Below are positions 13,480 to 59,345 of a stretch of 64,000 bases of DNA, piece by piece. The DNA is taken from positions 1 through 64,000 of IMG/VR virus record IMGVR_UViG_3300036987_000420; one strand, written 5' to 3'. The translations under genes and the position numbers were made by a program. How positions within the stretch are numbered: position 1 is the stretch's first letter; each line of letters begins with the position of its first letter. This DNA comes from a virus (taxonomy: Duplodnaviria; Caudoviricetes). The notes under the pieces are model-generated. The model searched no databases. It was given only the letters and a program-made list of their open reading frames with translations, and was not told the DNA's origin.

Positions 13480-15944
13480 CAGGCCGCCTCGCCTTCCCCG
13501 GCCGCAGCCGCCGTCTCGGCCTGCGCCGCGAGCGCCGCGCGGACGCGCTTCTTCTTCGCGGTGTCGGCGGCGACCATCGCCGTCGACTCGCGCTTCGCGG
13601 CCTCGCGGACCTCGGCGCCGCACTGGCAGCCGCGCGCCCGGTGGGCGTCGACGCGGATGCGCTGCCCGTCGCAGAAGACGTAGTCGGTGGGCTCCAGGCC
13701 GCCGGCCTCCGGCGGGTCCGGCACGACGGCGCCGGCCTCGTCGACCACGGCGGCCGGCGAATGCTGGTGCGCGTCGCAGACGAACACGGCAGGCGTCCGC
13801 GGGCTGTCGCGGTGCGCCTGGACGATGGCGACGCCGCTGCCGGCGAGCTTGTGCGCCAGGTCCGGCACGACGACGCCGGCGATGCCCTCGGCGACGTCGA
13901 CCCGCATCGCGCAGAGCACGGCGGACAGTCGGCCGGCGCGCTGCTCCTCGGCGAGCACGCGCACCAGGCGGATGGCGCGGTCGGTCTCGAGCGCCTCGAG
14001 CCGGTCGATGACGACGGCGCGGAAGGGTGCTACGCTCGGATCTCCCTGCGACTGAAGGGATTGAGACGCGTACATCAGCGCGACGCCGCAGACGATCTGC
14101 TCGCTGTCGCTGAGCGCGGAGTAGGGGCGCCAGGCGTCCGACCCCTCCGGCCCGCCGGCGTCGAAGGTGACGAGACCGAAGCCCCAGGCAGCGGGCTCGT
14201 CGCCGTTCGCGGGCAGCGGCCGGAACGCGAAGCCGCGCGCCAGCGGGTCGCCGCCGTACACCGGCCGGACGATCCGGTCGGCGTGCGCGGTCACGGCGGC
14301 CGCCGATCGCCGCGCCAGCTCGACGCCGAACGCGCCGAGCGCGCGCTCCAGGGCCCCCCAGGTCGCCCGCGCCAGGATGGCCGCGTCGAGGTCGGCCTCG
14401 TTCGCGGCCCGCAGGCGCTCGGCCTCCTCGAAACCGGCGAGCCGGGCGACCTGGTCGGACACGGCGGTCAGATCCGCCTCGCGCTTGTCGCGCGCCCCCT
14501 CCAGGTCGCCGACACCCTCGAGCGGCGGCAGGGCGGCGAGCGCCTGCTCCGCGGCGACGAGCTCCGAGCGGGCGGACGCGACGACCGCGGCGGCCTCGGA
14601 CCGGGCGCGCTCCCCGGACGCGGCGCGCTGGGCGGCGGCGTGCGCGGCGCGCAGCGCGTCGGTGGCGCTGCGCTCGGCGTTCTCGGCCTCGCTGGCGGCG
14701 GCGTAGGCGTCGTCGGCCGCCCGCCGCGCGGCGTCGCCCCGCACCCCGAGCACCGCCTCCCGGCGCGCCAGTCCGGTGCGCTTCTCCTGGATGGCGGAGC
14801 GCGCGGCGTCGAGCGCGCCGCCGGTCGTGCCGCAGGTCGGACAGTGCCCGTCGGCGAGCGCGACGAGCGTCTGGTCGATGCGCGACAGGTCGCCACGCAC
14901 GTCCCGCAGCTTCGCCTCGACCTCGGCCGCGGCGTTGTGCGCGGCGACCGCCGCCGCGCCGAGCTCCTTGCGGCGCGCGGTGGCGGCGTCGGCCGTCGCC
15001 TGGGCCTGCGCGACGGCGCCGGGGGCCGCCTCGGCTGGCGCCTGGGCGGCCGCGCCGGGCCGCTGCTCCGCCGCGGTGACCCGCTGCCGCGCCGTCTCGA
15101 CGCGCGCCGCGGCCCGCTGGCGCTCGGCCTGCGCCTGGGCACGGGCGGCGAGCTTCTCGCGGACGGCGGTCAGCTCCTCGCGGACGCGGCGCTCCCGCGC
15201 CTGGGCGTCGGCCAGCGTCCCGGGCGGCAGGTCGTCGCGGCGCAGGTCGACCAGCCGGCCGCGGGCCTTCTCGGCCTCGGCCTTGCGCCTCTGCCACTCG
15301 TTCTTCTGGACGCGCGCGTGCTCCTTCGCGCCCTCCAGTCCGTCGGCGGCGAGCGCCTCGGCCACGGCGGCGAGCTGCGCCGCGTCCGGGCGGCCCTGGC
15401 GCGGCTGCCCGCGGGCGTCGTCGTACTCCACCTCGGTCCGGCGCAGGCGGTCGTCGAGGTCGGCGCGGATGGCCGGGTCGGCGAGCGTCACGCCGGCGAC
15501 CTTCGCTACCAGCGCGGCCTGCTTCTCGGTCGTGAGGCTGATGAAGTCGGCGAGGTCGGTCGGCTGCATCCGCTGCGCGCCGAGGTGCGCGGCGAGACCC
15601 GCCTCGACCCCCTTCGCGTCCTTCACGAGCGGCTCGTCGCCGATGCTGAGGCGCGCCTCGTGCTTGGCGCCCAGGATGCGGGTGAGGCGCAGCGGCCGGC
15701 CGTCGCTGGTCTCGCCCTCGACGCCGAGCTCGACGCGGCCGCAGTCCGCCGCGATGTCGCCGAGCTGCGCCGGGGTGGCGCTGCCACCGATGCGGGTGCC
15801 GAGGGCGAGATGGCAGGCGAGCAGGCGGGCCGACTTGCCGCTGCCGTTCGGGCCGACGACCAGCGTCGGGCGGGTGAGGTCGAGCACGAAGCGGCGGCCC
15901 TTGACGCCGTCGCCGTCGGCGATGATGGTGCGGATGGTGGTCAT
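13479..15944 (-). CDS. Rad50/SbcC/SMC-like ATPase with coiled coil and zinc hook
   Basis: Walker A GPNGSGKS, long coiled coil with central CPTC hook, signature LSDSE, Walker-B-like VVIDRLE. Confidence 0.85.
14030..14067 (+). CRISPR. Solitary CRISPR-repeat-like unit C, inside the SMC-like gene (antisense)
   Basis: CTACGCTCGGATCT-CCCT-GCGACTGA-AGGG-ATTGAGAC; 4-bp stem, 8-nt loop, 8-nt handle-like 3' end; not part of an array. Confidence 0.65.
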
Positions 15945-18616: not shown

Positions 18617-18691
18617 CCTCCCGGTCGGTGGTACTCTCGTCGTGCCACCGACGTCCCCGACGTGCGGGGATGAGACACACCGACAGGGAGG
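18617..18691 (+). promoter_or_regulatory. Inverted-repeat cassette with extended -10 promoter and degenerate CRISPR-repeat-like leader (unit D)
   Basis: IR arms CCTCCCGGTCGGTG (18617-30) / CACCGACAGGGAGG (18678-91); TG-G-TACTCT; GTGCCACCGACGT-CCCC-GACGTGC-GGGG-ATGAGAC (18642-76). Confidence 0.5.
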
Positions 18692-18696
18692 CCAGG

Positions 18697-18993
18697 ATGG
18701 ACGAACTACGGATCCCATTCGTCGTCGCGTGCGACTGCGGCGCGAGTTTCTGGGTCGACGCCCAGCAGCTTGCGACCCCGGGCCTGGTGTTCCAGTGCCC
18801 ATCGTGCCTGACGTACCACCGGAATGTGCTGAGCCCGGCGCCAGAACTGGTACGGTCGTTCGCGGCCCGTCACGCCGCGCTCCGAGACGTCGTCAAGCGT
18901 GGAGGCCGCGTAACACAGGCCATCGAGAGCGACCTTCCGTTCGTGCGCGGCGAGCGGGAGTCGCTCGACGATCCGGGCTGCAAGCCGCAGTAG
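18697..18993 (+). CDS. Zinc-ribbon protein, counter-oriented to the left operon
   Basis: CDCG...CPSC; GGGAGG RBS; own promoter. Confidence 0.65.
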   Translation: MDELRIPFVVACDCGASFWVDAQQLATPGLVFQCPSCLTYHRNVLSPAPELVRSFAARHAALRDVVKRGGRVTQAIESDLPFVRGERESLDDPGCKPQ

Positions 18994-40364: not shown

Positions 40365-40598
40365 GTGCCGTACCCCGACTACACGACCACCGAGTGCGAC
40401 GAGGCGATCGTCGCCATCGACGCCGAGATCGCCCGCCTGCGACCGCTGGCGGACGCCTACTCGCTGGGCGGGGGCCGGCACTTCGCGCAGGGCCAGAAGG
40501 TCCAGCGGCTCCAGGCCGAGCGCTCCGAGTGGGTGGCGCGCAAGCTCGCTGCCGAGGGCTCCGGCGCGCCGCTCCAGTTCGAGTGCGAGCTGACGTGA
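40365..40598 (+). CDS. gpW-like head-tail joining protein
   Basis: 77 aa; CDEAI.AIDAEI...AYSLGGGR...LQAER; GGAGG RBS. Confidence 0.6.
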   Translation: MPYPDYTTTECDEAIVAIDAEIARLRPLADAYSLGGGRHFAQGQKVQRLQAERSEWVARKLAAEGSGAPLQFECELT

Positions 40599-41047
40599 TC
40601 GTCTCAATCCCCTTGTCTCAATCCCCTCACGGGCGGGGTCCGCAGCGTACCATGATCGACGCCGACGCCTACGCCGAGCAGGTGGCGATCCACCTCGCGG
40701 AGATCCTTCCCGAGGAGCCGAACGCGATCCGCGTGCGCCTGGCGGGCGGCACGCGCAACATCGTCGGCGAGCTCGTCGGCGCGACCGAGACGCGCCTCGA
40801 CCTGCGGGTCGACATCCGCCCCTACCGGCGCGCCGAGCGTGGCGCGGCCGGCGAGGCGGAGCGCGGCGACACAGCCATCGCGCTCCTGGAGGACGCGCTC
40901 GAACCCGGCGACCTGGTCGAGGCCGAGGGGCACCGCTACCGCGTCATCGCGGTGCAGCCCCGCTACCTCGCCGGGCGCGTCCACTGCTACGACGCGACGG
41001 CGGAGCGCCTCGACGTCGAGCGCGGCTCGCCGGTCGTGGACGGGTAG
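40595..41047 (+). CDS. Head closure/head-tail adaptor (alternative start ATG 40652)
   Basis: Position in the neck module; GDLVEAEGHRYRVIAV; coupled GTG at 40595 is in frame with ATG 40652. Confidence 0.6.
   Translation: MIVSIPLSQSPHGRGPQRTMIDADAYAEQVAIHLAEILPEEPNAIRVRLAGGTRNIVGELVGATETRLDLRVDIRPYRRAERGAAGEAERGDTAIALLEDALEPGDLVEAEGHRYRVIAVQPRYLAGRVHCYDATAERLDVERGSPVVDG
40601..40650 (-). CRISPR. Solitary CRISPR-repeat-like unit A (36 nt) plus tandem 14-nt partial copy
   Basis: Minus strand GTACGCTGCGGA-CCCC-GCCCGTGA-GGGG-ATTGAGAC (40650-40615), then AAGGGGATTGAGAC (40614-40601). Confidence 0.7.
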
Positions 41048-43902: not shown

Positions 43903-44328
43903 ATGGCCGAGGATGTCGTCCTCAGCAGCGACGTGCAGATCCGCGTCTTCAAGGCCGGCGTCCCGATCGGCGCCATCGACGCGACGGGCTTCTCCGTCAA
44001 CCAGCAGGCCGAGGTGCGCACCCGCGCCCTGCTCGGCAGCCGCGAGAAGGACACGTACGTCGTCTACTCGGGGCACAGCGGCACGGTGAGCGTCGAGCGG
44101 ACGAACACCCGCGTCGATGACCTCATCGACAGCCTGGAGACGCAGTTCTTCGACGGCAAGCCGGTCGACGAGATCCAGATCGCGAAGACCGACGCGTACC
44201 CGGACGGCACGCGGCGGACCTACATCTACCAGCGCTGCCGCATCTGGGCGGACGACAGCGGCTCGGGCGACGCGGCCGCGACCATCACGCTGAACTGGCG
44301 CAACGGCAAGCCGCGCGTGAAGGCGTAG
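43903..44328 (+). CDS. Tail tube protein
   Basis: 141 aa beta-rich ORF directly after the sheath. Confidence 0.75.
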   Translation: MAEDVVLSSDVQIRVFKAGVPIGAIDATGFSVNQQAEVRTRALLGSREKDTYVVYSGHSGTVSVERTNTRVDDLIDSLETQFFDGKPVDEIQIAKTDAYPDGTRRTYIYQRCRIWADDSGSGDAAATITLNWRNGKPRVKA

Positions 44329-44330
44329 AC

Positions 44331-44366
44331 GTCTCAATCCCCTCATCGGCGGGGAGCGCCGCCGCC
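44331..44366 (-). CRISPR. Solitary CRISPR-repeat-like unit B (intergenic)
   Basis: Minus strand GGCGGCGGCGCT-CCCC-GCCGATGA-GGGG-ATTGAGAC; 22/24 identical to the unit A core. Confidence 0.7.
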
Positions 44367-44413
44367 CGGCCGCAGGGTAGACGACCACGCCAGGTCACGG
44401 GAAGCAGGACCCG

Positions 44414-44827
44414 ATGAGCGACGAGATCCTGGTCGAGTACACGACGACGAGCGGCACACGCGCCGTCCTGGCCGAGCCGGACATGGAGCTGACCGAGCGC
44501 GCGATGGCGCTCGTCCCGGCCTCCACGCCGGCGATGAAGGCCGTCACGCTCCAGCGCCGCGAGACGCTGCGGCTGTGCCTGCGTTCCATCAACGGCCGCA
44601 AGGTCACCTATCAGGAGCTGCAGGGCGCCGGGCTACTGAAGGCGTTCCCGGGCGCCCGCGGGCTGCGCGACGTGCAGCAGCTCGAGGCGGTCCTCGACAA
44701 GCTCGGCAACACGAGCCTCGCCGAGGATGCTGCGGTTTTCCGGACGGCCCGCCCCGTCGACGCCGCAACCGGCGTACCGGCGGCGGGCCCGGCCGCGGCC
44801 GCAGAGGCGGAGGCTCCGGCGGCGTGA
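44414..44827 (+). CDS. Tail assembly chaperone
   Basis: Between tube and tape measure. Confidence 0.7.
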   Translation: MSDEILVEYTTTSGTRAVLAEPDMELTERAMALVPASTPAMKAVTLQRRETLRLCLRSINGRKVTYQELQGAGLLKAFPGARGLRDVQQLEAVLDKLGNTSLAEDAAVFRTARPVDAATGVPAAGPAAAAEAEAPAA

Positions 44828-57966: not shown

Positions 57967-58593
57967 ATGCTCTCGTCCAGGGGACGCGTCGTCCTGCTCC
58001 GCGTGCTTCTGCCGTGCATCCTGGCGCTCGCCGCCTGCGGCACGACATCCACGAACGGCCCCGACGGCGGCCCGAACCTGCAGCCGGCCTCGCCCACGGC
58101 GCAGGTGGTCGCCGGCGTCACGGCGGCCGGCCTCGCCGCGCTCGAGCCGCTGGCCGAGCGCGGCGCCGCGGTCTCCGCCGGCAGCGGCCAGACGGTACGC
58201 TGCTACCTCTTCAGCGCGGCCGCGGCCATCGCGCACACCGGCGGCGACTTCGCGGGGCGCGTCGCGAGCACCGGCGAGTGGTTCACGGCGGGCCCCGACA
58301 TCCGCATCGACACCGCGGCGTGCCGTCCGAACGGCCTCGTGCCGAGGGTGTCGGCCGAGACGGAGGCCACCGTCCGGAAGCTGCTCGACCAGACGCTCGG
58401 GCCCGTCGTGGCGCTCACGCGGGCAGTGATGGGCGTGGCCGGCGTCGGCTGCCGCTGGCAGGCGTTCGCGGAGTGGGTCGAGCGCGAGGCCGCGGCGGTG
58501 ACCGAGTCCGTCGTCCACGTGCTGGCCTACCCGGACGAGCCGTGGGTGCTCCCGGCGCTGCCGCTGCCGGCGTGCCCGGGCGAGGGCACCTGA
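57967..58593 (+). CDS. Lipoprotein
   Basis: Lipobox LAAC after a hydrophobic stretch; GAGGAGG RBS. Confidence 0.7.
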   Translation: MLSSRGRVVLLRVLLPCILALAACGTTSTNGPDGGPNLQPASPTAQVVAGVTAAGLAALEPLAERGAAVSAGSGQTVRCYLFSAAAAIAHTGGDFAGRVASTGEWFTAGPDIRIDTAACRPNGLVPRVSAETEATVRKLLDQTLGPVVALTRAVMGVAGVGCRWQAFAEWVEREAAAVTESVVHVLAYPDEPWVLPALPLPACPGEGT

Positions 58594-58946: not shown

Positions 58947-58991
58947 TTCACACGGTGGAAGTCACTGGTTCAAGTCCAGTATCGCCCACTC
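58947..58991 (+). repeat. attR core, 45 bp (displaced tRNA 3' half)
   Basis: Identical to 247-291. Confidence 0.95.
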
Positions 58992-59103: not shown

Positions 59104-59345
59104 TTATGGCCGCTGGGCCAGCTCGACCAGGCGGGCCACGGCCAGCTCCTTGGCCTGGATCGGGATGCCGGAGTAGCGCTGGGGCATCTGCTCCGAGCAG
59201 TGCCCCATCTGGCTGCGCAGCACGATTCGGTCGATGCCCGCCTGGACCATCAGCGTGTTGAAGGTCCGACGGAGCACCTGGGGCGGGACCCGAACGGCGA
59301 GCTTGGCGGCCTCCACGGCCAGGGGCTCGTGCAGCGACGCCGAGC
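59104..59345 (-). pseudogene. C-terminal remnant of a paralogous tyrosine integrase
   Basis: PQVLRRTFNTLMVQAGIDRIVLRSQMGH..QRY, near-identical to the int C-terminus; 5' part missing. Confidence 0.9.

Follow-up and report, generated by a model that had tools for sequence, protein, structure and literature searches.

The tail tube gene of this prophage lies at positions 43903 to 44328 on the plus strand of the window, by which we mean the whole 64,000-nucleotide stretch of DNA that was analyzed. It comes after the sheath gene, the product of which matches the PHROG tail sheath family, and its own 141-aa product matches phrog_12993; the gene ends GCG TAG, with the TAG stop codon at 44326-28. Since the tube protein and P0002, a homologue with 63% identity, are both 141 aa long and both have the ..KA end, the stop codon is ancestral. 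Two nucleotides past it starts unit B, a solitary CRISPR repeat-like element of 37 nt (44331 to 44367, minus strand) with no further copy within about 100 bp, which is followed by 9 nt of filler (44368 to 44376). The next gene (44414 to 44827, plus strand, 137 aa) holds, by gene order, the tail chaperone position before the tape measure gene, and a family search with it gave no match. Read on the minus strand, unit B consists of 13 nt, CCCC, an 8-nt G...A loop, GGGG, and the tail ATTGAGAC; the mRNA strand carries the complement, which opens with GTCTCAAT.

The first-pass annotation had described a GTAGACG pair that encloses the repeat and about 10 nt of filler, and the pair is indeed present, with the filler counted at 9 nt. 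Copy 1 (44325 to 44331, plus strand) takes in the tube stop codon and one base of unit B, running from the third position of the final Ala codon through the TAG stop and AC to the first G of GTCTCAAT. Copy 2, the same 7-mer, lies at 44377 to 44383 on the plus strand. At the same junction between the tube gene end and unit B, AGACGTCT forms a perfect 8-bp palindrome (44328-44335). GTAGACG is a frequent word in the window (22 copies, 4.6 expected), and the chance that a 7-mer ending at a given base recurs 30 to 70 nt downstream, as measured on the window, is p=0.017.

A related arrangement is found at repeat A (40601 to 40651, minus strand), which comprises a 14-nt partial copy (40601-14) and a full 37-nt unit (40615-51). 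Here the flanking word is TGATCG. Its first copy (40596-601) contains the TGA stop codon of a 77-aa head gene, and the second (40653-58), one base past the repeat, overlaps the ATG (40652) of a head-closure-like gene. The geometry that had been claimed as common to A and B holds, in that the last G of the duplicated word opens the copy in both cases (at A, the 14-nt partial copy), and both sites begin 2 nt downstream of a stop codon. For a 6-mer, the chance of such a recurrence within 30 to 70 nt is p=0.047 on the window, and the joint chance of the A and B duplications is ~8e-4, uncorrected for the post hoc choice of geometry. The flanking duplications at A and B are therefore real, yet each is just mildly unlikely.

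Two further units lie elsewhere in the window. Unit C (14031 to 14067, plus strand) sits within a minus-strand gene for an 821-aa ABC/Rad50-like ATPase, in frame with and antisense to that gene, at a position corresponding to the loop between the ABC signature and Walker B. Its stem is CCCT/AGGG, compared with CCCC/GGGG in A and B, so the stem covaries, and no flanking duplication is present. Unit D (18632 to 18676, plus strand; hairpin at 18655-76) is degenerate and reads TACTCT, 17 nt, CCCC, a 7-nt loop, GGGG, and ATGAGAC. Its orientation is sense with respect to a 98-aa Cys-rich open reading frame, whose ATG (18697) lies 21 nt further downstream. This frame, within 18632-18993, has a strong ribosome-binding site, and its product is zinc-ribbon-like. 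Because the layout of unit D and the frame resembles racr-acr bicistrons (PMC10651486), the 98-aa protein becomes an anti-CRISPR candidate. A CG stands before each of the three full units, giving CGTCTC; a conserved C ahead of GTCTCAAT was considered and then dropped.

This repeat family is far above chance. The 24-nt architecture of GTCTCAAT, CCCY, eight bases, and RGGG occurs three times in the window against an expectation of 0.00, and all four ATTGAGAC words in the window (0.29 expected) fall within units or the partial copy. Placed at 14 kb, 18.6 kb, 40.6 kb, and 44.3 kb, the copies lack the regular spacing of a CRISPR array. Given its 14-nt partial copy, A is a mini-array-like case by the SRUFinder rule (PMC10651486).

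The prophage itself is 59 kb long, comes from groundwater metagenomes, and is integrated at a tRNA-Val gene between 45-nt att repeats (247-291 and 58947-58991). It carries an integrase and a contractile-tail late operon. No Cas6, RAMP, or Cas1 was found in the 73.6-kb record. Past the right att copy lies a second mobile island (L243, 58900-73576 of the record) with a group II intron, a phosphorothioation-dependent restriction-like gene, and two tyrosine recombinases; the 159-nt stretch that opens it (59164-59322) is 84% identical to 449-607, the sequence after the left att copy. This arrangement suggests tandem integration at one tRNA-Val gene.

The tRNA-Val and the repeats both bear on the host. 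Among 31 genomes from the phylum to which a Polyangiaceae MAG belongs (Myxococcota), tRNA-Val identity went up to 95%, and ten genomes reached at least 90%. Near-matching repeats, most of them in arrays, were found in 10 of 301 Myxococcota genomes, with core identities of up to 21 to 22 of 24 positions (22/24 to unit A) and full-length identities of up to 27/37 (to unit B), and a MYXO-CTERM protein beside one near-matching array confirms the phylum. On these comparisons, the host is probably a member of the Myxococcota and, given a GC content of 73.5%, most likely a myxobacterium. An actinomycetotal host had been suggested by weak terminase matches to actinophages only; it was rejected on the absence of the repeat architecture from all 401 evenly drawn Actinomycetota genomes and on tRNA-Val identities of at most 88% across 61 Actinomycetota genomes, against 95%. 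No closer array turned up in the taxonomic order that gave the best tRNA match or in the classes of genomes G501 and G604.

Repeats of this kind are widespread. On the minus strand, the C/G stem shared by A and B is 4 bp long and is capped by an 8-nt loop whose first base is G and whose last is A; the 8-nt tail ATTGAGAC follows. When one genome per species was scanned for two-copy matches, there were at least 120 stretches across phyla in which repeats ending GGGATTGAGAC recur at CRISPR spacing; the repeats in the analyzed GGGATTGAGAC arrays were 36 to 37 nt long. The analysis of their build took in 118 arrays among the matches listed, and the commonest build was a 4-bp stem with an 8-nt loop (27 arrays), in 25 of which the loop closes G...A, as in A, B, and C. 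A covariance model made from 23 array repeats scored unit A at 31.8 bits, B at 28.7 bits (E about 2e-7), C at 22.0 bits, and D at 15.9 bits (E about 0.006). There is some circularity in these scores, since the units' own 11-mer served as bait for the arrays; this bait excluded the stem, the loop length, and the loop closure. No claim made here depends on genomes G004 (L209, excluded from alignment A1), G006, or G053.

No match to an Rfam CRISPR-DR model reached the gathering threshold; unit B drew nothing even at E values up to 10, and unit A reached 16.5 bits with DR8. The units do resemble CRISPR-DR36, a Thermus-type repeat that ends GGGGAUUGCGAC, in their 3' module of CCCC, loop, GGGG, and 8-nt tag, but unit A scored 12.3 bits against this model (minus strand; gathering threshold, 38) and unit B was unmatched. 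Taken together, the tag, stem, loop length, loop closure, and covariance score bear out the CRISPR homology that the first-pass annotation had proposed for the hairpin. Since the hairpin has this homology, it did not prove to be a mere terminator or processing site, the outcome that the annotation had named as telling against its proposal.

The arrays that share this repeat class point to type III systems. When the cas genes adjoining three arrays of this class were inspected, all three were type III. One array (L206) neighbors an RT-Cas1 fusion and a type III RAMP gene, and a second (L138) neighbors Cas10/Csm1. The third, in the myxococcotal genome G489, has an RT-PrimPol gene 339 nt away, with Cmr3 and Cas10/Cmr2 15 to 18 kb further; its Cas10/Cmr2 match scored 125 bits against a cutoff of 79. 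The order at this last locus (L319, G489:C25:403700-423600) is the array, an RT fused to a CRISPR-associated PrimPol, a Lon-like protease gene, and then Cmr3 and Cas10/Cmr2, which makes it a type III-B locus whose adaptation gene is an RT-PrimPol. No cas genes were found beside the small arrays of genomes G501 and G750.

A donor array was not among the sequences searched. The strict 24-nt pattern had no match in the viral and genome collections, looser patterns had none in IMG/VR, and a metagenome scan returned three single copies only (L240, L241, and L242). The best array match to the units is 27/37, which makes any match to the host's subtype putative. The three metagenomic copies (L242:2578-2614, L241:39-75, and L240:13462-13498) are single units of the TCA...GC loop family. 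The one in L242 (73% GC) has a core 23/24 identical to that of unit B and lies at the contig end, about 400 nt past an AAA_25 primase/helicase-like gene. Other IMG/VR contigs (L029, L244, L249/L271, L252, L255, and L262) also hold solitary units of this class, with correct pairing and G...A loops. The class is thus shared by viral contigs other than this phage, with six or seven additional solitary units found there. Most of them seem to have GTCTCAAT on the coding strand of their neighbors, an antisense placement like that of A, B, and C; because the gene calls behind this are crude and gained no firmness from PHROG checks, the orientation is not used as evidence.

We observed a consistent association between the units and a promoter-like hexamer. 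TANNNT hexamers are rare in the window (0.00046 per position), and TACNCT occurs only five times on both strands of the 64 kb. On the repeat-sense strand, four of these five precede the four hairpins by 5 to 19 nt: TACGCT at A (40644-49, minus strand, 5 nt upstream of the stem), the -10-like TACCCT at B (44374 to 44379, minus strand, 19 nt upstream), TACGCT at C (14031-36, plus strand, 7 nt upstream), and TACTCT at D (from 18632, plus strand, 17 nt upstream). The fifth, TACGCT at 58196, has no hairpin after it. The A box is so near its stem that a start 7 nt downstream would cut off the first base of the stem. A sigma-70 consensus scan at A, B, and C returned no full promoter, and no -35 box is evident, so the promoter is a putative one. 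Given that four of the five TACNCT boxes lie just upstream of units, the units resemble promoter-plus-repeat modules.

This placement also bears on the filler. Solitary repeat units (SRUs) have been published as standing immediately downstream of a promoter (PMC10651486), and because the TACNCT placement fits that picture, the filler would be a leader or promoter rather than a piece of spacer. Of the two origins that had been suggested for it, a donor-array leader or a donor-array spacer, the former is favored, since the filler forms TACCCT together with copy 2 of GTAGACG (three bases of each, across the junction), and the latter is not. The filler thus looks more like leader or promoter sequence than like a spacer.

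Comparison with homologues indicates that the units were acquired. In a 68%-identical orthologue and in 13 other homologues, the ATPase loop has seven residues, compared with 13 residues here, and unit C is a replacement, 39 nt in place of 21 nt, without duplication. Because unit C is absent from all 14 homologues, the comparison supports the view that the units are derived additions in this phage lineage. Once 57 nt are deleted at A, the stop and start codons again overlap as GTGA and the MID... N terminus is the same; once 52 nt are deleted at B, the genes are separated by a normal 33-nt spacer that contains a ribosome-binding site. In protein collections, a single relative (the source of P0002, P0004, and P0007), at 63 to 68% identity, was found for the tube, sheath, and ATPase proteins. 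No relatives of P0001, P0002, or P0007 were found in IMG/VR, and a search of cultured phages for a relative gave no match. The contigs of the four source runs showed no empty-site allele; the strains are near-identical and all carry the blocks. No RNA run was listed among those that contain the sequence.

With respect to how the units arrived, the first-pass annotation had attributed A and B to one insertion mechanism with target-site duplication. This part of its proposal was not borne out: the duplications are short, no terminal inverted repeats were found at the units, and unit C is a replacement. With a 7-bp duplication at B, a 6-bp one at A, and no duplication at C, the units do not have the character of a transposable element or MITE. 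The 7-bp duplication may nevertheless mark an insertion event, being weak evidence alone (p about 0.017). A small mobile insertion, MITE-like or a promoter-plus-repeat cassette, that duplicates a 6- to 7-bp target is a tentative possibility for the origin of the units. It concerns origin only and is compatible with any of the readings discussed below in which the units are decoys, anti-tags, or scars. The identical geometry of the direct repeats at B and A, the joint chance given above, the return of the GTGA overlap and MID... start upon excision of the A block, and the position of both sites 2 nt past a stop codon speak for such an insertion. It sits poorly with the lack of terminal inverted repeats, with inserts that are unlike in length and at their right ends, with a unit C that substitutes for sequence and lacks a duplication, with the commonness of GTAGACG in the window, and with the failure to find an empty site in IMG/VR, cultured phages, or the source-run strains. 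Moreover, copy 2 overlaps the -10-like hexamer and the AGACGTCT palindrome lies at the left junction, so part of the duplication could be functional or structural.

As to function, the reading that we prefer, and hold with moderate confidence, is that unit B is a phage RNA decoy of the Racr kind directed against CRISPR immunity, built as a minus-strand module from an acquired repeat of the type III class and its own promoter. The phage lineage would have acquired the Cas6-type hairpin and 8-nt tag of a type III-associated repeat class. Each module, which on the minus strand of B runs from a TACNCT -10-like box through a short leader and the hairpin to the ATTGAGAC tag, with A, C, and D alike, would be transcribed from its own promoter, at B against the late operon of structural genes. 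The repeat-mimic RNA would then be bound and cut by the host's Cas6 and type III proteins and, by titrating them, would act as an RNA anti-CRISPR (Racr). Transcription, Cas binding, and inhibition are predicted here from the sequence. Alternatively, the product could be a tag-bearing, crRNA-like RNA whose guide is antisense to the end of the phage's own gene; in the Cas6-cut RNA from B, the ATTGAGAC tag would precede sequence antisense to the tube gene end.

Each of the three full units runs antisense to the local genes, a feature that a decoy does not require, and it is this orientation that gives weight to a second reading. With local transcription opposed in direction to the three units, the phage mRNAs contain a perfect anti-tag, and a full match between tag and anti-tag switches off the type III response (PMC7214462). 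Under this reading, which we consider doubtful, recombination with a host type III array left the repeat behind: a spacer matching the tube gene end would have brought in the adjacent repeat, and GUCUCAAU in the mRNA, the perfect complement of the crRNA 5' tag, would keep Cas10 off. A type III spacer would impose just the orientation that is seen in three of three full units; the repeat class is linked to type III; the left junction coincides exactly with the repeat boundary; and the in-frame 39-for-21-nt swap at unit C, in an essential-looking gene, is more like patch recombination than transposition. A contig of run X1 that joins position 40441 of the window to 44331, the first base of unit B, could likewise be the host array, but the shorter side of the joint is just 22 nt and could be noise. 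The depth of this contig is 24.4, compared with 23.8 for the phage, and its putative spacer would target the 77-aa head gene, followed by the repeat. Self-mimicry of this sort would also demand three independent rare recombinations and protect one protospacer per site; it leaves the four of five TACNCT boxes on the other strand and the sense-oriented unit D unexplained, and neither a donor array nor a matching spacer was found in the collections searched.

The two effects could be combined. We regard it as unlikely that the units both mark the phage's own mRNA with an anti-tag and make, from their own promoters, a tag-bearing, crRNA-like RNA with a guide against conserved phage sequences (the ends of the tube gene and a head gene, and the ABC signature of the ATPase). 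If this were true, then in a host with the matching type III system the prophage mRNAs would be read as self, while related phages that lack the insertions would be attacked. The prophage would then possess a superinfection exclusion device that borrows the host's type III immunity, of which anti-tag escape via array recombination would be the simpler version.

It is quite unlikely that the units are instead neutral scars, left by filler capture or illegitimate recombination with CRISPR DNA, functionless, and tolerated in the orientation that Cas6 does not cut. The divergence among A, B, and C (a fixed tag, a covarying stem, and a free loop and 5' part) is like that among natural arrays and so could reflect three donors rather than selection in the phage, and the near-identical strains show no empty or variant alleles. 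Scars would not, however, be expected to keep a perfect tag in all four copies or to accumulate four times in one 59-kb prophage, and the TACNCT association is hard to obtain without selection. Finally, a phage-intrinsic sense-strand hairpin (a terminator, attenuator, or processing site unrelated to CRISPR) is highly improbable and largely refuted: although the units lie directly after the stop codons of well-expressed structural genes and a larger fold can pair the unit start with copy 2 of GTAGACG, there is no T-run and no terminator was called, so that they do not qualify as intrinsic terminators, the hairpins fold no better than shuffled sequences (z from -0.9 to -1.6), one copy is inside a coding region on the other DNA strand, and the tag, stem, loop length, and loop closure match a widespread CRISPR repeat class.

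The decoy reading places the units beside a described system. SRUs and Racrs of phages, prophages, and plasmids were reported by Camara-Wilpert et al. in 2023 (PMC10651486), building on the SRUs in reference 4 of that paper. Like these, unit B is a stand-alone, intergenic CRISPR repeat copy on a cas-free mobile element, with a promoter-like box just upstream on the repeat-sense strand and a repeat class that matches systems in the probable host phylum. The units differ from them in belonging to a type III-associated class, with expression and inhibition as predictions; in number and placement, with four copies in one prophage, three of them antisense, one in a coding region, and one with a 14-nt partial second copy; in the short flanking duplications at A and B; and in an identity to known array repeats of at most 27/37. 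The Racrs known to us to have been tested belong to I-F, I-C, and other non-type-III subtypes, and we know of no type III Racr that has been experimentally tested.

Virus-borne mini-CRISPR arrays, reportedly described by Medvedeva et al. in 2019, and crRNA-like viral RNAs offer another comparison, in that the repeat of each unit is followed by a possible guide sequence. Type III crRNAs need just the upstream repeat for their 5' tag. Here, in contrast, the guide would be antisense to the phage's own gene, and there is no second repeat except for the partial copy at A. To our knowledge, the gain of an anti-tag by a phage as a means of escape is undescribed. Discrimination between self and nonself by tag and anti-tag is established for type III systems (PMC7214462; bioRxiv 10.1101/369744), and the phage mRNAs hold the exact 8-nt complement of the predicted crRNA tag, but the anti-tags that are known are transcribed in antisense from the host's own array.

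Counterdefense by solitary CRISPR repeats is thus known from phages, in RNAs of the Racr type, and the association with TACNCT is the new feature here. The four type III-class modules lend themselves to experimental test as decoys for Cas6/Cmr, as self-marking anti-tags, or as guides borrowed against rival phages. In addition, unit C shows that a coding region, which the published search pipeline masks, can also take up a unit of this kind.
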